Assembly (NCBI GenBank): GCA_018304505.1
Contig: JAGVWA010000012.1
Location: forward strand, 1-10,378
DNA from: Nanobdellati archaeon
Lineage (GTDB): Archaea; B1Sed10-29; JAGVWA01
Direction: 5' to 3'
Length of the DNA stretch: 10,378 nt
The notes under the pieces were generated by a model. The model was given only the letters and a program-made list of their open reading frames with translations. It did no database searches and had not been told where the DNA came from. The position numbers and the translations under genes were made by a program. Shown here piece after piece: positions 661 through 10,378 of the stretch. Position 1 is the stretch's first letter. Each line of letters starts with the position of its first letter.

Positions 661-679
661 CGAAAACAATAACCATACT

Positions 680-702
680 TTATCAAAATCGCTAGCTTCA
701 AC
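680..702. repeat. displaced partial copy of the leuS 3' end (att-like direct repeat, copy 3)
   Basis: TTATCAAAATCGCTAGCTTCAAC is 23/23 identical to 1097-1119 and 21/23 identical to leuS 1627-1649. Confidence 0.9.
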
Positions 703-714
703 AACAGCTCTTTT

Positions 715-735
715 TATTGCATAACCATTATAAAC
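715..735 (+). promoter_or_regulatory. TATA promoter block of hicB cassette 2
   Basis: TATTGCATAACCATTATAAAC is 20/21 identical to 1124-1144; TTATAAA starts 30 bp before ATG 758. Confidence 0.75.
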
Positions 736-757
736 CTCTACTTCGAAAGTAAGACAC

Positions 758-1039
758 ATGGCTAAAAAATTAAACATAATAGAATTACCTGTATTTACCT
801 ACAAAGACGGCAAGTACTACGTATCAGAAGTTCCATTCATACATGTTGCTAGCCAAGGCAAAACAATAGATGAATCGATAGCCAACGTAACGGAAGCAGT
901 AGAGCTCTACTTCGAGGGAGAAGACGTAGAGGAGATACTAAAAGAAAAAGTGCCATTAAAAAGCAACGTGTACACAAGCACCATAGCATTTGACAAAAAA
1001 ACAAAACACTTAGTCGCCACTAGTTCTATAACGAGCTGA
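758..1039 (+). CDS. hicB: HicB-family antitoxin (now orphan)
   Basis: Motif KDGKYYVSEVPFIHVASQGKTIDESIANVTEAVELYFE fits the HicB-like pattern (..P.....SQG.T..EA..N..EA.ELY). Confidence 0.85.
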   Translation: MAKKLNIIELPVFTYKDGKYYVSEVPFIHVASQGKTIDESIANVTEAVELYFEGEDVEEILKEKVPLKSNVYTSTIAFDKKTKHLVATSSITS

Positions 1040-1045
1040 GCCAGA

Positions 1046-1095
1046 ATGACAAAAATACCGGTGCTCTGGAAGAATTTATTGACCTTCTCAACTAG
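1046..1095 (+). pseudogene. internally deleted HicA toxin remnant
   Basis: ATG 1046 reads MTKIPVL (HicA-like N-terminus, cf. MTRLTPI at 1385). It is fused out of frame to EEFIDLLN* at 1069-1095 (HicA-like C-terminus, cf. EEFLKLL of the intact copy). It sits directly after hicB. Confidence 0.75.
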
Positions 1096-1123
1096 CTTAT
1101 CAAAATCGCTAGCTTCAACGGCA
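1091..1123. repeat. displaced copy of the leuS 3' end (att-like direct repeat, copy 2)
   Basis: ACTAGCTTATCAAAATCGCTAGCTTCAACGGCA versus 1621-1653 ACTAGCTTATCAAAATCGCGGGCTTCAACGGCA: 31/33 identical, including the leuS stop codon. Confidence 0.95.
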
Positions 1124-1144
1124 TATTACATAACCATTATAAAC
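1124..1144 (+). promoter_or_regulatory. TATA promoter block of hicBA cassette 1
   Basis: TATTACATAACCATTATAAAC; TTATAAA starts 30 bp before ATG 1167, the same spacing as in cassette 2. Confidence 0.75.
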
Positions 1145-1166
1145 TCCCACCCCGTAACTAAAATAC

Positions 1167-1388
1167 ATGACTAAAAAATACGAATTTACCGTTCTGATTG
1201 AAAAAGACGAAGACGGCTGGCTAGTCGGAAAAGTGCCGGATCTACAAGGCTGTGCGACGCAAGCAAAAACCATGAATGAATTGATGAAACGCGTAAGAGA
1301 AGCCATCCTAGCTTGTCTTGAAAGCGAAAAACAAGAGCCCCAGCACCTAGAATTAATCGGCGTGCAAAAATTAGAGATAAACGCATGA
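1167..1388 (+). CDS. hicB: HicB-family antitoxin
   Basis: FTVLIEKDEDGWLVGKVPDLQGCATQAKTMNELMKRVREAILACLE is a classical short HicB (UPF0150) signature. Confidence 0.92.
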   Translation: MTKKYEFTVLIEKDEDGWLVGKVPDLQGCATQAKTMNELMKRVREAILACLESEKQEPQHLELIGVQKLEINA

Positions 1389-1618
1389 CCCGCTTAACCC
1401 CTATTTCTGGAAAGAAACTCTCTAAAATTGTAGAACAGCTTGGTTTCAAACTAGTTCATCAAAAGGGTAGTCACAAACGTTACGTTCATGACGATGGAAG
1501 AAAAACCACAATCCCCACACATGGAAACGAAGAAATCGGCATCGGCTTATTGATTGAAATCCTCGGACAAATCAAGATACCAAGAGAAGAGTTTTTAAAA
1601 CTACTAAAGAAAAGGTAA
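1385..1618 (+). CDS. hicA: HicA-family mRNA interferase toxin
   Basis: ISGKKLSKIVEQLGFKLVHQKGSH...DGRKTTIPTHGNEEIGIGLLIEILGQ has the catalytic GSH motif; ATGA overlap with hicB. Confidence 0.93.
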   Translation: MTRLTPISGKKLSKIVEQLGFKLVHQKGSHKRYVHDDGRKTTIPTHGNEEIGIGLLIEILGQIKIPREEFLKLLKKR

Positions 1619-1621
1619 CTA

Positions 1622-4462
1622 CTAGCTTATCAAAATCGCGGGCTTCAACGGCACCGCGTTGCCCGCTTTTGCTTCTTTTGACCCAGAAGCTTTCATCACT
1701 TCAACCTCAGCGCCAAAGCGCTGCTTGAAGAAATCGCTAGCCTCCTTGATGGCATCAAACTCCTGCTGCTCAGAAGGCACGTCATCAAGCAGCTCTCCAG
1801 CGTGCTTTGATAAGTAACTCACATAAGTCACTGCCTGCTTTCCATGGGCTTTGACATCCTCTTGCTGCATCGCGTTCTTCAAGATGTTCTGTGGATGCTT
1901 CATCTGCGCAGCCATCCTATAAACAGTGCGTTTCCATTCCGGCGCAATGAAAATAGTTATGTTCGCCAGTTTGCCTAAGTTGGCGAGCTTCTGCACGTTT
2001 TCAATGTCACCCTGTAAACCAAGGAGCATCTGCTCATTCGCCTCGGCTGTTCCATCAATTTTTGTCTCGTCAGCCACTGGGTACGGTTGCTGTACAACAA
2101 AGCCCTTGTTGCCAAGCTGCTCCCATAGCTCCTCGCACGTGTGCGGAATTACGGGGTTTATCAACTTAACAAGCGTCTCGGCAGCCCACTTTGCCACCTC
2201 CTTGTTGTCGCCATTCCTGGTTTTGTACCACGCCAGGACCTTGAGGCCTTCGAACATGGCCTGATCAATCGCCTTCCGCAGCTCAAGCGAATTGAAGCTG
2301 ATTGTGGTGCTCTTTATTATTGTGTTTATCCTGGACTCGAGCCACGCGTCTATATGTTTTTTCTTGCTGCCTTTGACTTGCTTCATTTCCATTACCGCAT
2401 TGTAGAAGCGCTCTGCTTGGCTTTTGTAATTCATCACAGTATCATGAGCCCATTCAATGTCGCTAAACGGGCTGCCGACGTGCGCGTAAAACAAACGCAT
2501 TCCGTCAACGCTATACTCATCAGCAGGCGGAATCGCATTACTAAAGACGCCGCCTTTGCTCTTGCTTATTTTTTCTCCGCCGCCTTCTGTAACCCAGTAG
2601 TTGACGAAGATGCCTTGTGGCCAGTCGTTCTCAGGAAGAATGGCCGCGTGGTTCATGATGTAAACCGGAAAGTGCACTGTCTGGTGTTCCTTGCCGCCAA
2701 GGTTGATATCGACAGGATACCAGTACTCAAATTCCTTTTTGACTTGTTTCCAAGTTTCGTTTTTTGGTTTTCCTTTACCTAAAAAAACGTAGTCGAAGAA
2801 TTCCTCTGTCAAGTCATCGAGCTGCAGCTTGCCTGCGTTGAAGTACCTTGACACAACGTAAAAAGCAGGATACAGCGTGGAATCACTGATGGCCTCGATT
2901 GTCCAGCCCTTGTCGAATGGAAATGGGGTACCAACCCAATTGCCTCTGCGCGTAGCGCTTCTATATCCGAACCAGTCCAACACGCCTGGCAGGTTATCCT
3001 TGTAGCTTTGGGGGTAAATGTTCATTCTCTTGGCATGCTCCTTCGACTTTTCTTTCACTTCCGGGTTTTTGTAGTCGATCACCCACTGGTCGTTGATTTT
3101 CTTTACAACGACGCGTTCGCCACACCTGCAAACAACTGGCTCTGAAAAGTCCACAAACACGTCTGCTTTGCCTGCGCTGATTAGTTCTTGTTTTATCTTG
3201 TCTTTGGCTTCCATTACGCTCATGCCAGCGTATTTCCCAGAGTGCTTCGTCATGGTACCTGTGTGGAACCCTGCCTTATATACCTCTTTTTTCGCTTCTT
3301 CGAGTTTCGGGTCGTCCTGATTCTTTATTTTGAGGTCTCGGCATATTTTCACTGCAGCCATGTCGCCATAGCCTTTCACTTCCATAATTGGGATTACCTC
3401 TATTGATTTTATTTTCTCGTAGTCCAGGCCGTATTTTTCGCAATCGACCTTGGACTTCTGCAAGTCCACGAGACCCATGTAATCGATAGGCGCATCGCTT
3501 GGCACCGACGTCACTATGCCAGAGCCAATGCCAGGGTCACAGAATTTACTTGGCAGGATAATGATTTCCCGATCGACCCCTGGCGCCTTAGCGTACTGTC
3601 CAATCAAGTTCCCGCCTTTGATTTTCTGTATCACCTCAAGGTTGTCTTTCTGATACCTCAGTTTGGACAGAGCTTCTTGGCTTAGTATCCATTCTTCCCC
3701 ATCGACCTTGGCGAGCGCATACTCGACGTTTGGATCGATCCACAAGTTGGTTTGCCCGTACACGGTTTCTGGTCTGAGGGTGGCGGCTATAATATACCGG
3801 TTTGGTTTTTCAAATTCGAACTTCAGCAAGGTGTACTCGTTCTGTTGCGCATTACCTCCTTTGCTCAAGTCGGTTTCGCTTGGGTCTACAGCTACAGAGC
3901 CGTCCTTTGGGCAGTAGGCCTCGTACGACTCGATTTGTTTCAACATTCCCAAGTTTTTGAGTTTCCTGAACTGCCACTCGATGAACTTCTGGTACTGAGG
4001 GTATTGCGTGCAAACGATGGCGTCAAAGTCCGCCAATAAACCGAAGCGCTTGAATGTCTTCTGGTAATTTTCTGTGAAGTATTTCAAGACAACCATGATG
4101 TCCTTTTCGCCATCCTTCTTGAGTTGCTCTATCTGCTTTTCATTGAGGCCGTCGATCTTGAGGTTGTTGATTATGTCTTCCCGGCCTTCTTTTAGTTTGC
4201 GGAGCCATGTTGGCGCCACGTTTCCAGAGGCGTGAGTGCCTACTGGAAAAAAGATTGAGTGGCCTTGCATCCTTTTGAGGCGGCAGATCATGTCGCTGTA
4301 AGTAAACCCCCGCATGTGCCCGACGTGCTGATGACCAGAGACGCCAGGGTAAGCAAAGTGCAAGTAGAATTTTTTCTCCCCCGTTGGCCCTGACTTGAGT
4401 TCTGGGCTAGCATACCATCTTTCCTGCCATTTCTTCTCGATTTGTTTGTGATCAAATTTCAT
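1622..4462 (-). CDS. leuS: leucine--tRNA ligase, archaeal/eukaryotic type
   Basis: 946 aa. HIGH motif is HVGH and KMSKS is KISKS. CP1 editing motifs ATLRPET and GSGIVTSVPSDAP are present, as are EFEYWYPVD and the C-terminal PLKPAI. An SD-like GGAGTGA lies upstream (about 4470-4476, minus strand). Confidence 0.97.
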   Translation of the reverse strand: MKFDHKQIEKKWQERWYASPELKSGPTGEKKFYLHFAYPGVSGHQHVGHMRGFTYSDMICRLKRMQGHSIFFPVGTHASGNVAPTWLRKLKEGREDIINNLKIDGLNEKQIEQLKKDGEKDIMVVLKYFTENYQKTFKRFGLLADFDAIVCTQYPQYQKFIEWQFRKLKNLGMLKQIESYEAYCPKDGSVAVDPSETDLSKGGNAQQNEYTLLKFEFEKPNRYIIAATLRPETVYGQTNLWIDPNVEYALAKVDGEEWILSQEALSKLRYQKDNLEVIQKIKGGNLIGQYAKAPGVDREIIILPSKFCDPGIGSGIVTSVPSDAPIDYMGLVDLQKSKVDCEKYGLDYEKIKSIEVIPIMEVKGYGDMAAVKICRDLKIKNQDDPKLEEAKKEVYKAGFHTGTMTKHSGKYAGMSVMEAKDKIKQELISAGKADVFVDFSEPVVCRCGERVVVKKINDQWVIDYKNPEVKEKSKEHAKRMNIYPQSYKDNLPGVLDWFGYRSATRRGNWVGTPFPFDKGWTIEAISDSTLYPAFYVVSRYFNAGKLQLDDLTEEFFDYVFLGKGKPKNETWKQVKKEFEYWYPVDINLGGKEHQTVHFPVYIMNHAAILPENDWPQGIFVNYWVTEGGGEKISKSKGGVFSNAIPPADEYSVDGMRLFYAHVGSPFSDIEWAHDTVMNYKSQAERFYNAVMEMKQVKGSKKKHIDAWLESRINTIIKSTTISFNSLELRKAIDQAMFEGLKVLAWYKTRNGDNKEVAKWAAETLVKLINPVIPHTCEELWEQLGNKGFVVQQPYPVADETKIDGTAEANEQMLLGLQGDIENVQKLANLGKLANITIFIAPEWKRTVYRMAAQMKHPQNILKNAMQQEDVKAHGKQAVTYVSYLSKHAGELLDDVPSEQQEFDAIKEASDFFKQRFGAEVEVMKASGSKEAKAGNAVPLKPAILIS

Positions 4463-4580
4463 GAAAAAATCACTCCAGGTTATCCTTTCCTTGTTTTATT
4501 GACTTTTCTTGAGTATTTATAGCTTTTTAACTCACGTCAGTTTAAACTCGCTCAGGTGGCAAAATCGTTAAATATACTAG

Positions 4581-4850
4581 ATGCTCTTAAATACATTGAT
4601 GACTATGGCGGATGATACATCTATTGACGCTGGCAAGGCTAGCAGCATAGCAAAACAATACTTGATCGACACGTACGGTAATCTTGGCCAGTTTACATTT
4701 AAAATACACTCGATCAAAAGAAATTCAGCTGAACACATCTGGATTGTTGAGTGCGAATCTTATGCGACCCCTAAGGATGAAAAACCAACAGCGTACACCA
4801 TAAAAGTAAACATCAAAACAGGTGAGATCGTGTCAATCTCATCTATCTAA
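4581..4850 (+). CDS. small hypothetical protein, PepSY-like pattern (true start may be 4599 or 4605)
   Basis: Helix (A..IAKQYL) followed by beta strands W.V...Y.IKVNIKTGEIVS, reminiscent of the PepSY fold; divergent from leuS. Confidence 0.7.
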   Translation: MLLNTLMTMADDTSIDAGKASSIAKQYLIDTYGNLGQFTFKIHSIKRNSAEHIWIVECESYATPKDEKPTAYTIKVNIKTGEIVSISSI

Positions 4851-4889
4851 TATCATAATGACCCTAAGCCTTATCAGCAGCGCTATTAG

Positions 4890-5105
4890 GCAAGGCTGCT
4901 TGCTCGGGAGAAAATCCTATCTCACGACCTCTTTGAAGAACTAGGCGTTACAGATGTGGCCCTTCTAAATTGTTCTGAAGACAAAAAGTATTTTGTCATA
5001 ACAAAGGAACGGCAACTACTTGGACAGATGCGAGCAAGAAAAATGAACACCATCGGCATAGACACGCTAACTGCGTTTTATTACAGCTTGCCCGAGCATG
5101 CGTGA
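4890..5105 (+). pseudogene. C-terminal fragment of a PIN-domain (VapC-like) protein
   Basis: Frame with no plausible start, read manually after TAG 4887-4889: ARLLAREKILSHDLFEELGVTDVALLNCSEDKKYFVITKERQLLGQMRARKMNTIGIDTLTAFYYSLPEHA*. LGVTDVALL...VITKERQL resembles the PIN motif LG.TDA.IL....V.T.D..L. Confidence 0.55.
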
Positions 5106-5106
5106 T

Positions 5107-5577
5107 CTATAGCTTAACGAGCACGTAGAAGTCAAGCTCTGATTTACCAATGTAGCCTGACGAAGTTGCTTTTTCCGCCAGATACTTTAGCTGGCCGTCC
5201 ATTCGCACTGGCAATGAAACCACAACAACGCCCCCTGGGTTTGCGTACCGTTCCAGGTTTTTGTTTTTCAGCAAGTGATAAGCGTCGATGCAAATGATGA
5301 GGTCGAACTTTTCATCAGTTACGAAGTTATCTGTCACATGGTACTCAATGTTGGGCTTGCGCTTGCCGATTGCCTCATCAGAAACGTCAACACCTACGAT
5401 GCGCTTGATGCCGTGCTGCTTGAAATCCAAGAAGTCCTCGAACCAGGCCCTACCGATGCCGATGTCCAGCAATGACTTTTTGTCATGCATGTAGAACTCT
5501 AGCGTTTCCCACAAGTCTTCGTACTTTTCGAACTGCTTGGGCCGCCAGGATTCGTATATCTGGTTTGAGTACTCCAT
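5107..5577 (-). CDS. class I SAM-dependent methyltransferase
   Basis: Motif I SLLDIGIG, post-I IVGVDVS, motif II KFDLIICIDAYH, and NPGGVVVV. Confidence 0.85.
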   Translation of the reverse strand: MEYSNQIYESWRPKQFEKYEDLWETLEFYMHDKKSLLDIGIGRAWFEDFLDFKQHGIKRIVGVDVSDEAIGKRKPNIEYHVTDNFVTDEKFDLIICIDAYHLLKNKNLERYANPGGVVVVSLPVRMDGQLKYLAEKATSSGYIGKSELDFYVLVKL

Positions 5578-5627
5578 ATACGAATTTTGACGAATGCTTT
5601 ATATATGAATAATCCTTTTTCTTGAAC

Positions 5628-6050
5628 ATGGCACTACAAATAGTACCCGTAAACTACGTAGCTGTTGTAGTAGCTGCGATTGCCAGCATGGTCATCGGGT
5701 TTCTCTACTACTCCCCGAGCTTGTTCGGTGGCAAATGGATGAAACTCGCAGGCATTACTAAGAAGGAAGCAGACAAAGCAATGAAGCAAGGCATGGCCAA
5801 AACATTGGTCCTTGGTTTCATCACTGCCCTAGTAATGGCGTGGGTGATCGCAATGATCATTGGCAACGTCGGTGCGGCCACGGTAACAGAAGGCGCAATG
5901 GTCGGCTTCTGGGCATGGCTGGGCTTTGTAGCCACATTTAGCTACCACGGAGTCCTCTGGGGAAAGCAACCTCATTCACTCTGGACCCTCCAAAACGGCA
6001 ACAACCTAATATCAATGGTAGTAATTGGCGCAATAATCGCAGCACTGTAA
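5628..6050 (+). CDS. DUF1761-family membrane protein
   Basis: VNYVAVVVAAIASMVIGFLYYSPSLFGGKWM and GFWAWLGFV are typical of DUF1761; four hydrophobic segments. ATG 5628 is preferred over TTG 5622, with TTTATATA at 5598-5605. Confidence 0.88.
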   Translation: MALQIVPVNYVAVVVAAIASMVIGFLYYSPSLFGGKWMKLAGITKKEADKAMKQGMAKTLVLGFITALVMAWVIAMIIGNVGAATVTEGAMVGFWAWLGFVATFSYHGVLWGKQPHSLWTLQNGNNLISMVVIGAIIAAL

Positions 6051-6072
6051 AACTACACAGCTAAAAAACCAC

Positions 6073-6098
6073 TAGACGGGCCCTCAGGGCCCCATCTA
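6073..6098. terminator. GC-rich hairpin between convergent genes
   Basis: GGGCCC-TCA-GGGCCC (6078-6092) with outer TAGA/TCTA pairing; function is inferred from position only. Confidence 0.3.
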
Positions 6099-6416
6099 CT
6101 CTTCTTTCTTTTCAAATCTTTGGGTATCCCTATCGTGTAGTTTGTTTATTGTTCTATCAACGCATTCATCGAGGTTAATGCCAAGGGAGTTTGCCATGCA
6201 GGTTATAGTTACAATGAGGTCTGCTAGTTCATCTGCGACTTCCCTTGTTTGTTCAGACGGCTTTTTCTTTTTAGGACCATATCGGTGGTTGATTTCCCTG
6301 GCTAGCTCACCCATTTCTTCTGTCATGCGGGCCATTATTTCTAGTGGCTGCCAATAAGGAGTTTTAAATTGCTGAGCCCATTCGTCTACTTGCTCTTGCA
6401 CGTGCTTTAATGTCAT
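6096..6416 (-). CDS. MazG-like nucleotide pyrophosphohydrolase (YpjD-like)
   Basis: YWQPLEIMARMTEEMGELAREINHRYGPKKKK...ADELAD shows the EExxE...ExxD all-alpha NTP-PPase motif. Confidence 0.92.
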   Translation of the reverse strand: MTLKHVQEQVDEWAQQFKTPYWQPLEIMARMTEEMGELAREINHRYGPKKKKPSEQTREVADELADLIVTITCMANSLGINLDECVDRTINKLHDRDTQRFEKKEE

Positions 6417-6500
6417 TAAGTAGTATAGGGCCTTGATTTATTTAATCATTTTGTTTTCAAATACCCGGCCCATGTCCTATTTAAGTATGCTTAAGCTTAA

Positions 6501-6689
6501 TCAGGTTTCGCAAGCGCACTCGGCTTCCACTTGCTGGCATCCCCTGCACACAGGCATAATGTTTTCATTTCCACAGGGGTGCTCTTCGTCTTTTTCTATC
6601 ATGAAAGCGCTGCACATCTGGCACTTATACGCCACCGGAGCGTTGCACTTGCTGCACACATCCCCCGAGGTTGTTTGCCACGCCGTCAT
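6501..6689 (-). CDS. small Cys-rich putative zinc-binding protein (62 aa)
   Basis: Start revised to ATG at 6689 (MTAWQTT), preceded by SD GGTGA. Motifs CSKC, CQMC, HPC, CRGC and CAC. Confidence 0.75.
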   Translation of the reverse strand: MTAWQTTSGDVCSKCNAPVAYKCQMCSAFMIEKDEEHPCGNENIMPVCRGCQQVEAECACET

Positions 6690-6696
6690 TTTTACA

Positions 6697-7104
6697 TCAC
6701 CTTGTCTTGAAATACTCATCAATGTTATTTAAGGCTTCACCAACAGTTCGATAGCGCATGACTGGAAAGCTTCCGTTGCCTGAAATCATCGCACTAAGTC
6801 GCTGCCCGCGTTTTGGCCTGTACAAGCACAGGATGCGCTTTTGCATGTCCTCTGCCTTTGCGATCTCATAGCCAACGCCGATGCTCGGCACTGAAACATC
6901 GGCAACAACCACGTCTGCTAGGCGCAGCCAAGACATGTCCCGCTCATAGATCCAATCATCAGTGTTCACGCTATCGATTTCGGCCCCATGGGCAACGTGT
7001 TCTGTCAATACCTCGCCGTACTTCCTAAGGTGCGCGATGATCTTCTTGTATAGCCCCGTGTCAGCATCGCCACCGCGCATGGACCCTGCGAAGTAAATCT
7101 GCAT
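6697..7104 (-). CDS. nucleoside 2-deoxyribosyltransferase family / Rcl (DNPH1)-like dNMP N-glycosidase
   Basis: Start revised to MQIYFAGSMRGG (ATG at 7104). VLTEHV, IYERDMSWL, PSIGVGYE (catalytic Glu) and LSAMISG are DNPH1-type motifs. Confidence 0.92.
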   Translation of the reverse strand: MQIYFAGSMRGGDADTGLYKKIIAHLRKYGEVLTEHVAHGAEIDSVNTDDWIYERDMSWLRLADVVVADVSVPSIGVGYEIAKAEDMQKRILCLYRPKRGQRLSAMISGNGSFPVMRYRTVGEALNNIDEYFKTR

Positions 7105-7155
7105 AACACAAATAATGAACACAAAGTATTTAAACGATTCTTGCCTTACTCTGTT

Positions 7156-7548
7156 ATGGGAATGATCGGCGGAATCATCAAAAAATACGAGGCGCAGGGC
7201 AAACAGAAACAAAGGGACGCCCGGGTAAAACTAGGCATGGAGCCAACCCCAAATTTGGAGAAGCACTCAGGAGATGGGATTATAGACGCAGAATCGGGTG
7301 CCAAGGAGCAGGCTAAGGAAATCGCCGAAGTCAAAGGCTATTCCCAAAAATCATATGAAGTAACCCCCGAAGACATGAAGATCTTCGAGTACAACAACAA
7401 ACTCGTGGAGTTCTACAAGAACATCGAAAGGGCCACCATCATCTTAAACGACTTAAACCAACACAAGCAAGTCCTGGAACAACTAAACCAGTTGCGTGAA
7501 GAAAACGTTTCTCTAAAAGACAGAATTAACCAGCTTGAGCAACGATGA
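7156..7548 (+). CDS. hypothetical protein with C-terminal coiled coil
   Basis: ORF track gives 7141 (TTG); ATG 7156 is preferred because of TTTAAA at 7129-7134. Heptad-like C-terminus; ATGA overlap with the next gene. Confidence 0.75.
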   Translation: MGMIGGIIKKYEAQGKQKQRDARVKLGMEPTPNLEKHSGDGIIDAESGAKEQAKEIAEVKGYSQKSYEVTPEDMKIFEYNNKLVEFYKNIERATIILNDLNQHKQVLEQLNQLREENVSLKDRINQLEQR

Positions 7549-8132
7549 AGATCGAAGAAGAATACGGCCTGCCCGAAATTTATTTTTCAAAAGTCACAGC
7601 CGCGAATTACGAAAAGAGCCGCGCAATGCGAAAAATACAAACAGAAATCACGCGCAGGGCATTGGAATTCATAAAGTCCACCGAGGGCACTGCGCTCGAC
7701 ATTGGCTGCGGCACGGGATTTTCTATGCAGGTTCTCGCTGATGCAGGCTTCGATGCTGTCGGGGTTGACGTTTCGCAGGACATGATCGACATTGCCGTCA
7801 GCAAGGGCTTCAAAGCTCTGCATGGCACATTCATGAACCTGCCGTTCGACAACAATTCATTCGACGCTGCAGTTTCTATCAGCGCGCTGCAGTGGATTCA
7901 GGCAAAATCAGAATCAGAACTAATTAGGAATTACCTCAAGGTGCTCACAGAGATTTACCGGGTTCTAAAACCAAAGGGGGAATGTGTTATACAATTCTAT
8001 CCAATCAACGCCACTTACCACGATTTGTTCATCAAAGCTGTAAAGAAAACGCCGTTTACTGCTCGCACAGTCACTGATTTTCCAAACAATCAGAAGAAGA
8101 GAAAGACGTTCATCGTTCTTGAAAAACGCTAG
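7545..8132 (+). CDS. class I SAM methyltransferase, Bud23/WBSCR22-like (putative SSU rRNA m7G methyltransferase)
   Basis: ALDIGCGTG plus family-specific motifs PEIYF, IQTEITRRALE, SFDAAVSISALQW, QFYP and DFPNNQKKRKTFIVL, which parallel Bud23 motifs recalled from memory. Confidence 0.85.
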   Translation: MKIEEEYGLPEIYFSKVTAANYEKSRAMRKIQTEITRRALEFIKSTEGTALDIGCGTGFSMQVLADAGFDAVGVDVSQDMIDIAVSKGFKALHGTFMNLPFDNNSFDAAVSISALQWIQAKSESELIRNYLKVLTEIYRVLKPKGECVIQFYPINATYHDLFIKAVKKTPFTARTVTDFPNNQKKRKTFIVLEKR

Positions 8133-8743
8133 CATCCGAATTCGTTGTCTATCGGGCAGAACTTCGAGGTCGCATTTGAGCCTTTAGGAATACCCGGTTC
8201 TGGCCCAGAATAGATGTACTCCATGACGTCTGTCTGATTCCACTCATGTTCGTGGTTCCAGAGCTGCCAGAAGTACCTCCACTCGTTCCAACCTATGCCG
8301 AGGTGCTGTACATAGACTCCATTTTCAGCTAGCATGCCGCCGATTTTTCTGCCGGTCATGCATGGGATGCTGTAGCAGTAAACAATAATGTCCTTGCCTG
8401 GGTTTGATTCCTGCAGCGCCTTGAATGAATTCACAATCCGTTCTACATCGCCGTAGGCGCTTGTCTCGGGGTCCTTGTAAGCAGGTATGCTCACTGCGCC
8501 GATTATGTGCTCGCGTTCATACTCCTCCTGGCTTCTCAGGTCAACAAGGGCAAAATCCTGACTAGGCCCCATGTGCTTCCGGATGCTGTGCGGGCTGACA
8601 TGCACTGCGTTTTCAATGTCATAGAATTCCTTGATCAGCTGGTCTTGCGATTTTTGCTGTTGCGTGAGCGCAAGTGTAACTAAAGAGCCCACTACTGCAG
8701 CAACAACCACTGCCATCAGCAAAACCTGCATTTGGGGCTTCAT
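8129..8743 (-). CDS. rhodanese-like domain protein with N-terminal membrane anchor/signal
   Basis: LVDLRSQEEYEREHIIGAVSIP, IIVYCYSIPC active-site loop and LGIGWNEW; hydrophobic N-terminus. TTTTATAAA lies about 25 bp upstream on the minus strand. Confidence 0.9.
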   Translation of the reverse strand: MKPQMQVLLMAVVVAAVVGSLVTLALTQQQKSQDQLIKEFYDIENAVHVSPHSIRKHMGPSQDFALVDLRSQEEYEREHIIGAVSIPAYKDPETSAYGDVERIVNSFKALQESNPGKDIIVYCYSIPCMTGRKIGGMLAENGVYVQHLGIGWNEWRYFWQLWNHEHEWNQTDVMEYIYSGPEPGIPKGSNATSKFCPIDNEFGC

Positions 8744-8817
8744 AGAGTACTATCCCCAAAACGTCTTTATAAAAGTATCATAACCCTGCGTGCTATAACA
8801 ATAACCGGCACCGTTAC

Positions 8818-9096
8818 TCACCAGTACCGGATGTCGATTTTTCCTTTCTCTTTGAAGTACCTCAGCAAGAGGTATTGGATTTGCAGCAACAAGCCGACGA
8901 TGACAGCGATGCCCAGCAAGACCGCATCCTGGAATGCATCGAACGTGCCGAGGTAGAGCTTGTAGAACACGTACACAAACCCAATTAGCATTATCGCGGT
9001 GCCCCAGAGTTTGAACCACTCGGGCAGGTTTATCCAGTGCTTCTTGTTTAATATATGGTGCATTGCGTTCACTTCAATGATTTTCCTTTTTGCCAC
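8818..9096 (-). CDS. small two-TM membrane protein
   Basis: ORF track; two hydrophobic stretches (LWGTAIMLIGFVYVF and AVLLGIAVIVGLLLQIQYLLL). Start is uncertain (GTG 9096 or the later Met). Confidence 0.6.
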   Translation of the reverse strand: MAKRKIIEVNAMHHILNKKHWINLPEWFKLWGTAIMLIGFVYVFYKLYLGTFDAFQDAVLLGIAVIVGLLLQIQYLLLRYFKEKGKIDIRYW

Positions 9097-9362
9097 AAGC
9101 CTTTTTCGAAGTAGCCTATGTCTGCTTCTACAAGGGCCTTGTCAGTTATATTAATAGCGGCTCGGGTTTTGTCTGATTCAGCTCCCTTTATCGCCTTGCC
9201 CGATTGTAGGTTATCTTGTATCACAAATGAAATTGGGATATCCTTAGGATATACTACGCGAACCTCTACATTCTCATTGTTAAATAAGGTTTTCCATGTT
9301 TTTGTAGTTGGTTTGTAGTTTAGGAGGTTAATGTCGTCCGGCATTATTAACTTTATTTTTAT
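9069..9362 (-). pseudogene. C-terminal fragment of a TrmB-like (PLD-fold effector domain) regulator
   Basis: The frame stays open upstream of Met 9344 (IKIKLIMP). VEVR...ISFVIQD...INITDKALV...YFE..W resembles a TrmB C-terminal domain; no HTH is present. Confidence 0.45.
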
Positions 9363-9596
9363 GTGGGGCTAGGAACCTACGATGACATAATTATACAAAC
9401 CCGTTTGCCAGAACAGATAATCAGAGACATGGAAAAACTCTATAGTAACATAAAACAAGTTGAAGATTTAAACTTCGAAGATTTAATGAAGATAGCTACT
9501 AAAAACGTTCAATTTAGGGTTACTGTAATGAAAAATCCCCAATTAGCAAGACAGAACCAAGACTCTGTAATACAGACATTCAAAAAAGCGCGATGA
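9363..9596 (+). pseudogene. probable C-terminal fragment of a longer hypothetical protein
   Basis: GTG start only 18 bp from the divergent ORF's Met, so there is no room for promoters. In-frame TAA at 9348-9350. The sequence is protein-like through to TGA 9594-9596. Confidence 0.4.
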
Positions 9597-9624
9597 TCAC
9601 CAACAGCAATCCCCCCGCAAGTTC

Positions 9625-9632
9625 TTATATAC
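9625..9632 (+). promoter_or_regulatory. TATA box for the candidate sRNA
   Basis: TTATATAC about 25 bp upstream of 9650-9651, with no plausible protein ORF following. Confidence 0.55.
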
Positions 9633-9649
9633 TAAAACAGCATCTATAG

Positions 9650-9721
9650 TGCTGCGATGACGTCACCAGGCTTGCCAGAACCTCTCTGAGGTGATGATGA
9701 AGATCATGAGTGCAGAGCAGC
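9650..9721 (+). ncRNA. candidate box C/D methylation guide sRNA
   Basis: C-like GCGATGA 9654-9660, D' CTGA 9686-9689, C' ATGATGA 9694-9700, 12-nt guide 9701-9712 and D-like CAGA 9713-9716. Ends are complementary (GCTGC 9651-9655 / GCAGC 9717-9721) and a TATA box lies upstream. Confidence 0.6.
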
Positions 9722-9796
9722 TTATCTGCTTACAGATAGGCGCAGCTTATCTGCTTACAGATAGGCGCAGCTTATCTGCTTACAGATAGGCGCAGC
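9717..9796. repeat. 25-bp hairpin-forming tandem repeat, 3.2 copies
   Basis: GCAGCTTATCTGCTTACAGATAGGC occurs exactly at 9717, 9742 and 9767, followed by GCAGC. Internal stem GCTTATCTG-CTTA-CAGATAGGC has one G.T pair. Confidence 0.97.
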
Positions 9797-9810
9797 AATT
9801 TTAACTTATA

Positions 9811-9846
9811 GTTTGCAAACATTTATATAGTTTATTGTATAATAAA
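9811..9846 (+). promoter_or_regulatory. TA operon promoter with palindromic operator candidates
   Basis: TTTATATA 9822-9829, flanked by the palindrome GTTTGCAAAC (9811-9820) and the inverted repeat TTTATT-GTAT-AATAAA (9831-9846). Confidence 0.6.
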
Positions 9847-9860
9847 TCTATAGTGATTCT

Positions 9861-10109
9861 ATGGTATCTTATACAAGCATACAAATCTTGCCTGAAACAA
9901 GAGAAGAATTAAGTCATTTGAAATCAAGCCCTCGGGAGACTTATGACGAGTTAATCAAAAAATTGATTGAATTGATTCCAGAAGGAGACGAAGAAGGCAC
10001 TTACAAAGATGAATTTAAAGTTGGCCTTTTGAACGCAAAACTCGATGCCATAAAAGGAAGAACCTATTCGCTTTCAGACGTAAAAAAATCCCTAGGACTG
10101 AATAAATGA
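9861..10109 (+). CDS. putative antitoxin, RHH/CopG-like N-terminus
   Basis: TSIQILPETREELSHLKSSPRETYDELIKKLIE and C-terminal GRTYSLSDVKKSLGL are typical of archaeal RelE partners; ATGA overlap with the toxin. Confidence 0.85.
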   Translation: MVSYTSIQILPETREELSHLKSSPRETYDELIKKLIELIPEGDEEGTYKDEFKVGLLNAKLDAIKGRTYSLSDVKKSLGLNK

Positions 10110-10360
10110 CCTGGAAGATTGAGTTTACAAAAGAAGCACTTAGAGACATCTCAAAACTTGAAACAAAGATTCTCGACAGGATACTAGACAAACTTGAACA
10201 GACAAGAGAGAACCCACATCATTATTTTCAACGCTTGGTGGGCCACGATGATTTCAAATTCAGGGTGGGCGATTATAGGATACTAGTGCTCTTATTGCAT
10301 GACGAGAAAATAATAATACAAAAAGTAGGACACCGAAAAAACGTTTACAAACGTCTCTAA
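10106..10360 (+). CDS. relE: RelE/ParE-family toxin
   Basis: WKIEFTKEALRDISKL...RLVG...FRVGDYRIL...VGHRKNVY is a canonical RelE signature. Confidence 0.93.
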   Translation: MTWKIEFTKEALRDISKLETKILDRILDKLEQTRENPHHYFQRLVGHDDFKFRVGDYRILVLLLHDEKIIIQKVGHRKNVYKRL

Positions 10361-10362
10361 GC

Positions 10363-10378
10363 AGCAGCTTATCTGCTT
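10363..10378. repeat. further copy of the 25-bp repeat, truncated by the window end
   Basis: AGCAGCTTATCTGCTT is 16/16 identical to 9716-9731. Confidence 0.9.

Follow-up and report, generated by a model that had tools for sequence, protein, structure and literature searches.

The window analysed here, i.e., the whole stretch of 10,378 nt (positions 1 to 10,378 of contig JAGVWA010000012.1 of a Nanobdellati archaeon), carries three cassettes built of toxin–antitoxin (TA) genes. Two of them, of the hic type, lie one after the other at the 3' end of leuS, coding for leucyl-tRNA synthetase (LeuRS), where they are bounded by a 33-nt direct repeat (L) and accompanied by a promoter-like module (P), while the third, of the relBE type, is bounded by copies of a different, 25-nt repeat close to the end of the window. 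The 8-mer AGCTTATC occurs in both repeat types. The three TA cassettes are real insertions, and the best-supported reading is that they are non-autonomous and were integrated at short attachment sites through conservative recombination, accreting in tandem at the tail of leuS. The features concerned are the following:

674..706, + strand: leuS-tail repeat L, copy 1, the outermost; 82% identical to the reference copy, with ACTTTATC at the place of the core
715..770, + strand: promoter-like module P1 together with the first codons of cassette 1; 80% identical to 1124-1179, with a TTATAAA box ca. 29 nt before the ATG
758..1039, + strand: cassette 1 antitoxin gene, hicB-like, 93 aa; product 37% identical across 43 aa to the HicB with a Pfam match, E 4e-6
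1046..1090, + strand: hicA 5' stump of ca. 15 codons, fused directly to L copy 2; similarity seen by eye
1091..1123, + strand: L copy 2, separating the two hic cassettes, taken as the reference copy; AGCTTATC at 1094-1101
1124..1179, + strand: promoter-like module P2 of cassette 2; 80% identical to P1
1167..1388, + strand: hicB antitoxin gene, 73 aa; PF15919 HicB_lk_antitox, E 1.8e-7
1385..1618, + strand: hicA toxin gene, 77 aa, TAA at 1616-1618; PF07927 HicA_toxin, E 1.3e-16
1621..1653, - strand: L copy 3, the functional leuS 3' end; 94% identical to copy 2, TAG being the complement of 1622-1624, AGCTTATC at 1624-1631
1622..4462, - strand: leuS, archaeal-type leucyl-tRNA synthetase, 946 aa; tRNA-synt_1 and Anticodon_1, homologues annotated as leucyl-tRNA synthetase
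9717..9796, + strand: 25-nt unit in 3.2 tandem copies, 100% matches, no spacers, AGCTTATC in each unit
9797..9860, + strand: AT-rich probable promoter region of the relBE cassette, judged from its sequence; cassette G+C content 0.348
9861..10109, + strand: relB-like antitoxin gene, 82 aa; PF24434 DUF7557, E 4.9e-6, 4-nt overlap with relE
10106..10360, + strand: relE/parE-family toxin gene, 84 aa, TAA at 10358-10360; PF05016 ParE_toxin, E 6.2e-10, homologues named RelE
10363..10378, + strand: further site of the 25-nt type, after relE; holds the unit's first 16 nt, is identical to 9716-9731, and is cut off by the end of the window

Along the + strand, the order at leuS is L copy 1, P1, the hicB-like gene, the hicA stump, L copy 2, P2, hicB, hicA, two further nucleotides, and L copy 3. 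The unit comprising the hicB-like gene and the hicA stump is 417 bp in size and the hicBA unit 530 bp. The 33-nt repeat consists of the last ten leuS codons and the stop codon (PLKPAILIS, TAG), and leuS is the target gene of the hic cassette insertion; its open reading frame (ORF) is intact at 946 aa, and its tail is triplicated. The intact hicBA pair adjoins leuS, and the decayed cassette with a frayed outer repeat lies distally. L copy 1 is degenerate at both edges: as read from the sequence, it agrees fully with copy 2 in the inner 23 nt (679-701), with unrelated edges. The P modules, 77% identical over the 43 nt before the ATG, probably serve as promoters, a role which in the case of P1 we presume from the architecture of archaeal promoters. 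A scan for bacterial-type promoters and terminators, which is not suited to archaea, gave results at the level of shuffled sequence.

Both hicBA and relBE fit the type II TA operon, with family matches of the toxin and the antitoxin and a 4-nt gene overlap. The hicB-like protein of cassette 1 has no Pfam or NCBIfam match of its own, and the ORF comprising the hicA stump (1046-1174), which starts with MTKIPVLWKNLL as compared by eye with MTRLTPISGKKL in HicA, has no Pfam match. The intact hicA contains an internal site, 1449-1464 (AACTAGTTCATCAAAA, the codons of the conserved F-K-L-V-H-Q-K), matching the leuS-type repeat in 14 of 16 positions, with two mismatches, and the stump of cassette 1 is joined to L copy 2 at approximately the homologous place. 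This suggests that most of the cassette 1 toxin gene may have been removed by a deletion between the internal hicA site and the repeat. A HicA variant, P0055, encoded on another contig (2,751 nt), is identical to that of the window to approximately residue 45 and then frameshifted; to judge from its sequence, it is probably a population variant with an inactivated toxin gene. Other HicA homologues show 57–75% identity.

The end of leuS was compared with those of its relatives, found by a LeuRS search of the contigs of 185,579 species genomes, from which the best 80 loci of 174 relatives were taken with 10-kb flanks. The LeuRS of the window ends with ...PLKPAILIS, while the relatives end with ...KPAI-x-x-E, E being final in 15 of 17 protein-database homologues. 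Among the 62 loci with a recognisable tail motif, the final residue is E in 49, K in three, V, I, G, and L in two each, Y and F in one each, and S in none. Because a final S occurs in 0 of these 62 relatives, the last leuS codon and the stop codon (AGC TAG) look like a contribution of the insert. The point at which foreign sequence gives way to native sequence, on the + strand, is located within AGCTTATC (AGCT|TATC), and the identity of L copies 1 and 2 likewise starts at TTATC. No real copy of the leuS tail was found downstream of leuS among about 73 properly tested loci of the 80 (76 have a long ORF, and in L004, L005, and L076 the longest ORF is not a full LeuRS match). The 12–15-nt tail matches found in L002, L006, L009, L013, and L071 were rejected as being of low complexity or far off.

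The closest LeuRS in the species genomes shows 49% identity, with nothing between 49% and 100%, and in a collection of 5.8 billion proteins, searched with LeuRS residues 640-946, the only match above 44% is a 100% match, whose cluster has three members from two contigs, the longest of 7,869 nt. Judged by these comparisons, the window evidently comes from a very sparsely sampled archaeal lineage. Its nearest LeuRS relatives belong to metagenome-assembled genomes labelled only as 'archaeon', Micrarchaeota, Thermoplasmata, and Iainarchaeum.

The two hic cassettes have their ends in common (L 82%, P 77%) and differ in their cargo, the hicB coding DNA past codon 10 being 47% identical vs. 46 ± 1.6% in shuffled sequences. 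Such a combination of like ends and unlike cargo argues for separate acquisitions and not for a simple duplication. It is very improbable that no mobile family is involved at leuS and that one ancient insertion was tandemly duplicated by unequal crossing-over, followed by gene conversion or promoter constraint. Flanking direct repeats do invite unequal crossing-over, the two HicB proteins are homologous, and P, as a probable promoter, would be under constraint, but the divergence of the coding DNA has reached the level of shuffled sequence, the L copies, although non-functional, still being 82–94% identical; moreover, duplication leaves the first insertion, the non-native leuS terminus, and relBE unexplained. 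The G+C contents of the three cassettes are 0.378, 0.398, and 0.348, vs. 0.484 in leuS and 0.46 in the remaining genes. A transposon or a miniature inverted-repeat transposable element was rejected as an origin, as no inverted repeat pair brackets any cassette and the flanking repeats, of 33 and 25 nt, are direct. The cassette ORFs match TA families or nothing, with no integration genes inside the cassettes.

The relBE unit has a size of about 566 bp. Each 25-nt unit upstream of it can form a hairpin with a 9-bp stem and a 4-nt loop (-7.3 kcal/mol, z-score -2.9; for the whole array the z-score is -3.7). A CRISPR-like (clustered regularly interspaced short palindromic repeats) array was ruled out, since there are no spacers. 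The outer copies of the 25-nt type, starting at 9716 and 10363, have one extra base in common, which is missing from the inner copies; this would fit a flanking pair of which the inner part has been amplified. The protein cluster of relE comprises sequences from eight contigs, the longest of 79,475 nt, and because this exceeds the 7,869-nt maximum of the LeuRS cluster, relBE also exists away from this leuS. Further relE homologues form a series of 99, 79, 77, 70, 70, 65, 62, and 61% identity, and four of the nine relE clusters with at least 61% identity are known only from contigs of no more than 1,121 nt. This distribution points indirectly to mobility or multiplicity of relBE. In the 80 loci only two TA homologues were found, hicB in L041 and relE in L004, and the relBE of L004 has no AGCTTATC after its stop codon. 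Neither cassette region gave a blastn match to plasmids or phages, and scans for tRNA genes and Rfam families returned nothing except one irrelevant match with an E value of 4.

It is quite unlikely that the 25-nt repeat is a functional hairpin array (a RelB/RelE operator, a 3'-end or terminator hairpin, or an iteron-like element) and not a scar of insertion, with the copy after relE starting the next array and the likeness to the leuS repeat being incidental. TA operons are commonly autoregulated at palindromic operators, the three perfect tandem copies without spacers each form a significant hairpin, and no more than 16 nt of the downstream copy lie within the window, all of which would suit such an array. 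Nevertheless, the array lies 65–145 nt upstream of relB, upstream of the likely TATA box and not over it (as read by eye), its outer copies have the extra base in common, as expected of a flanking pair, the relBE cassette is low in G+C, and relE occurs in other contexts.

The initial annotation had pointed out that the leuS-derived and the 25-nt repeats, otherwise dissimilar, both contain AGCTTATC in the same orientation and at the same offset from the toxin TAA, and that the 8-mer recurs at 1094-1101 and in each tandem unit; all this is correct, coordinates included. In the whole window the copies of AGCTTATC start at 1094, 1624, 9719, 9744, 9769, and 10366, all on the + strand. This makes six copies vs. 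0.41 expected, a number reached in 0 of 200 shuffles; with one mismatch allowed there are 13 vs. 8.8 expected, i.e., seven extra, and 21 of 200 shuffles do as well. After both the hicA TAA (1616-1618) and the relE TAA (10358-10360), AGCTTATC begins 6 nt past the last base of the stop codon, with 5 nt between them. Both repeat types begin 2 nt past the toxin stop codon, and in both site types AGCTTATC is positioned at the cassette-proximal edge of the repeat. In the window, 2 of 66 stop codons have AGCTTATC at most 18 nt downstream, and by coordinates the only + strand stop codons so followed are those of hicA and relE.

The probability of such a coincidence was estimated from the 18 nt following the stop codons of ORFs of at least 120 aa, in all 1,679 real 3' flanks from the window and the 80 archaeal loci. 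Identical stretches of 8 nt or more, in register, were found in 20 of 20,288 within-locus flank pairs and in 1,894 of 1,971,030 sampled cross-locus pairs, i.e., with a frequency of ca. 1e-3 in both. A random 33-mer and a random 32-mer have an 8-mer in common, in any register, with a frequency of 0.017 (400,000 samples). The in-register coincidence of AGCTTATC at the two sites, chosen after seeing the sequence, is thus suggestive. In the 80 distant archaeal loci AGCTTATC has 68 matches in 1.47 Mb, a background level predicting 0.48 per window, and it lies at most 30 nt downstream of an ORF stop codon in 3 of 5,537 cases. A separate observation concerns a Nanoarchaeota contig (L026, 19743-19791), where three AGCTTATC copies, one forward followed by two reverse, lie within 50 nt, the first two forming a near-perfect palindrome.

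The 80 loci were also screened for direct repeats of at least 20 nt located 150–3,000 bp apart. In L041 (1691-2403), hicA and hicB lie between 76-nt direct repeats, in L021 (272-1057), a TumE toxin gene and its partner between 43-nt direct repeats, and in L028 (1764-2578), an unknown gene pair between direct repeats of ca. 95 nt. Each of these repeats duplicates the promoter or the 5' end of the host gene that follows. The enrichment of the motif, a test proposed in the initial annotation and applied only to these distant archaea, did not appear: AGCTTATC is at background there, and three repeat-bounded two-gene cassettes lack it. Repeat-bounded TA cassettes recur in Archaea, and AGCTTATC is particular to this window. 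The three cassettes may be seen as a recurrent mode of TA insertion with long and variable target duplications, for which no described mechanism was found. Besides, a Micrarchaeota locus (L005) contains an exact 20-nt direct repeat (12085-12104 and 12488-12507), with copies 403 bp apart and similar to the T-arm and 3' end of a tRNA, which could represent two tRNA genes or an att duplication.

In the best-supported reading, each cassette is made up of an attachment repeat, a promoter of its own, genes for the antitoxin and then the toxin, and 2 nt, encodes no recombinase, and would have entered the chromosome by means of an enzyme encoded elsewhere, probably through circular intermediates and a recombinase acting in trans. 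Two hic cassettes would have been stacked at an att-like site formed by the ten final codons of leuS, the newer hicBA beside leuS and the older one distal, with the hic insert supplying the new last codon and stop codon of leuS (AGC TAG). relBE would have come to lie between copies of another site, of 25 nt, which forms a hairpin. AGCTTATC might then be the common recognition or crossover core, letting different cassettes use otherwise unrelated sites.

A functional core AGCTTATC used by one recombinase at both sites is possible, though somewhat below an even chance, and a number of observations weigh against it or against the recombination scheme as a whole. The six copies of AGCTTATC represent only two independent repeat families, the 33-nt leuS-type one and the 25-nt unit, whose agreement beyond AGCTTATC, at 6 of 25 in-register positions read by eye, is at random level, and the sites of one tyrosine recombinase usually have more than 8 bp in common. 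The two sites also differ in structure, the 25-nt unit forming a hairpin (z-score -2.9) vs. an unstructured leuS-type repeat with its promoter. Three tandem 25-nt copies without spacers are not what a clean integration leaves, and the hicA stump ends exactly at L copy 2, requiring an extra deletion or a secondary-site event. The core of L copy 1, ACTTTATC, has two mismatches to AGCTTATC, the full core being absent, and in leuS the TTATC part of AGCTTATC is normal coding sequence that specifies the conserved ...L-I residues. The repeats of L041, L021, and L028 (two of which bound TA pairs according to Pfam) do not contain AGCTTATC even with one mismatch, and they begin 50–78 nt past the last stop codon, vs. 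2 nt in the window. A family search detected no recombinase gene in the 10.4-kb window, either among the 22 ORFs or among seven further short ones. Finally, given the post-hoc freedom of choice, the coincidence of AGCTTATC is perhaps as likely as about 0.01–0.02.

It is doubtful, but by no means far-fetched, that the cassettes are real and AGCTTATC is coincidental and without function, hic and relBE stemming from unrelated events, i.e., from the action of different integrases or from a Campbell-type single crossover of small circles over 25–33 nt of homology. The existence of only two independent sites with random identity outside AGCTTATC, the overlap of a part of it with leuS coding sequence, and its absence from L copy 1 all speak for coincidence, as do the any-register probability of 0.017, the background frequency of AGCTTATC in the 80 loci, and the arbitrary 43–76-nt repeats without AGCTTATC bounding the hicAB pair of L041 and the TumE pair of L021. 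On the other hand, an in-register match arises in only ca. 1e-3 of control pairs, both repeats begin 2 nt past the toxin stop codon vs. 50–78 nt in the cassettes of L041, L021, and L028, and leuS changes from native to foreign sequence inside AGCTTATC. Of the delivery of TA cassettes to AGCTTATC sites by one trans-acting system, proposed in the initial annotation, the compact repeat-bounded TA cassettes and the marks of their insertion are upheld, while a single trans-acting system and a role of the core are conjectural: the independent sites number just two, and the search of the window for a co-occurring recombinase found none (0/22 and 0/7 ORFs). More specifically, an integron-like system devoid of attC sites, in which a chromosomal recombinase and the 8-bp core AGCTTATC would shuttle TA circles of ca. 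0.4–0.6 kb in a deep-branching DPANN-like archaeon, seems unlikely; its sites would be any that offer the core, including the region around the stop codon of an essential gene, where the cassette would rewrite the final codon.

Two other parts of the window deserve a mention. The segment 1-673 is strikingly T-poor on the + strand, with an AT skew of +0.41 to +0.46 and a negative GC skew; its ORFs are fragmented in all frames. Pfam and NCBIfam gave no match either for the ORFs of 1-704 or for the small unknown ORFs. In the direction of leuS, the segment starts with T-tracts, resembling a terminator or a 3' untranslated region, and it could represent non-coding DNA, the remains of a gene, or an RNA that escaped recognition. 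The second is a perfect palindrome, GGGCCC-TCA-GGGCCC, at 6078-6092, located between the convergent genes 5622-6050 (DUF1761) and 6096-6416 (MazG-like), which is possibly a bidirectional 3'-end element.

How TA operons move is seldom visible outside integrons, transposons, and the pdif modules of Acinetobacter. The window shows minimal TA units with exact boundaries, two unrelated sites with a candidate core in common, and one att site located within the gene of an essential aminoacyl-tRNA synthetase. Should a single recombinase act on both sites, a barely sampled archaeal lineage would possess a compact system of cassette exchange, and the question of how TA genes spread would have a concrete, testable answer; if AGCTTATC is a product of chance, the window still offers a clean case of TA cassettes that lack an integrase and have accreted at an att site in an archaeal protein-coding gene. 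To call the system undescribed, as the initial annotation did, is too strong as far as the concept is concerned, since integron TA cassettes, pdif modules, and cis-mobilizable elements (CIMEs) are known analogues. In the limited collection of literature searched, no description was found of archaeal TA cassettes that lack an integrase and have the copied 3' end of a protein-coding gene as their boundary.

The notion of TA loci as 'mobile cassettes' is associated with Pandey and Gerdes (2005), who are not known to have given an attachment-site mechanism. The term, with reference to their work, is used in a passage of PMC12413379. The general idea in common is of TA operons moving as small units within and between genomes; the cassettes of the window differ in showing explicit flanking repeats and a candidate core. 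Archaeal integrative elements that use tyrosine integrases likewise duplicate a short att segment and rebuild an intact target gene, and some of their attB sites lie inside protein-coding genes, according to PMC8371274. Those elements are kilobase-sized viruses or plasmids with an integrase of their own, whereas the units of the window are single TA operons with none. To our knowledge, no cognate integrase has been described for these cassettes.

CIMEs, as presented in an excerpt of PMC5704250 for the streptococcal systems of ICEs (integrative and conjugative elements) and IMEs (integrative and mobilizable elements), have no integrase, keep attL and attR, and undergo accretion at the target gene's 3' end. 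The leuS array resembles them in that its direct repeats copy the 3' end of the intact target gene and no integration genes lie inside. CIMEs are described as decayed remnants of large bacterial ICEs or IMEs, in contrast to the units of the window, of 417–530 bp, which comprise a TA pair only and reside in an archaeal host. Moreover, unlike CIMEs, the hic units are trimmed precisely, 2 nt past the toxin stop codon and 0–8 nt before the promoter.

Sites of the pdif type flank their modules in alternating orientation. All repeat copies in the window are direct and on the + strand, so that the opposite orientation of pdif sites is not found here. The pdif modules of Acinetobacter plasmids are small, some carry TA genes, and they are moved by the host XerC/XerD, as far as partial texts of PMC6449649, PMC13141974, and PMC12907356 tell; the likeness lies in small TA modules bounded by short sites, with the pdif modules depending on a chromosomal recombinase. 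A dif-type site has 28 bp in an 11-6-11 layout with imperfect inverted arms, as given in a fragment of PMC2958812. Arranged as 11-6-11, the 25-nt unit has complementary arms in 7 of 11 positions, a weak match made by eye, and the leuS repeat has no dyad (fold z-scores -1.3 and -0.7).

In integrons, the cassette boundaries have only a short conserved core in common, and attC is an imperfect palindrome that folds single-stranded, with paired core and inverse-core boxes, and is far longer than a 25-nt hairpin. It is extremely improbable that the cassettes of the window are integron gene cassettes in a CALIN, i.e., a cluster of attC sites lacking an integrase. They do resemble such cassettes in being small, set in one orientation, and bounded by sequences with only a short core in common; according to PMC9668308, integron cassettes are small, are often TA pairs with their own promoter, and are moved in trans by the integrase, most archaeal arrays are CALINs, and TA components make up 10.5% of annotated cassette proteins. 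Against this, the 25-nt unit folds, but as a hairpin of 22 nt, and L with P is unstructured on both strands, showing no single-strand structure, attC-like or other (z-scores -0.31 to +0.54). There is also no intI among the 22 ORFs of the 10.4 kb and no match to an RNA or structure family in a search in which no dedicated attC model was used. The boundary repeat reproduces leuS coding sequence literally, being a duplicated piece of a housekeeping gene, and in place of a single array there are sites 8 kb apart, with housekeeping genes between them. The window differs from the known systems in its minimal, exactly trimmed units with no recombinase nearby, in its direct repeats, in a site located at the stop codon of an essential synthetase gene, and in two unrelated sites sharing only 8 bp.

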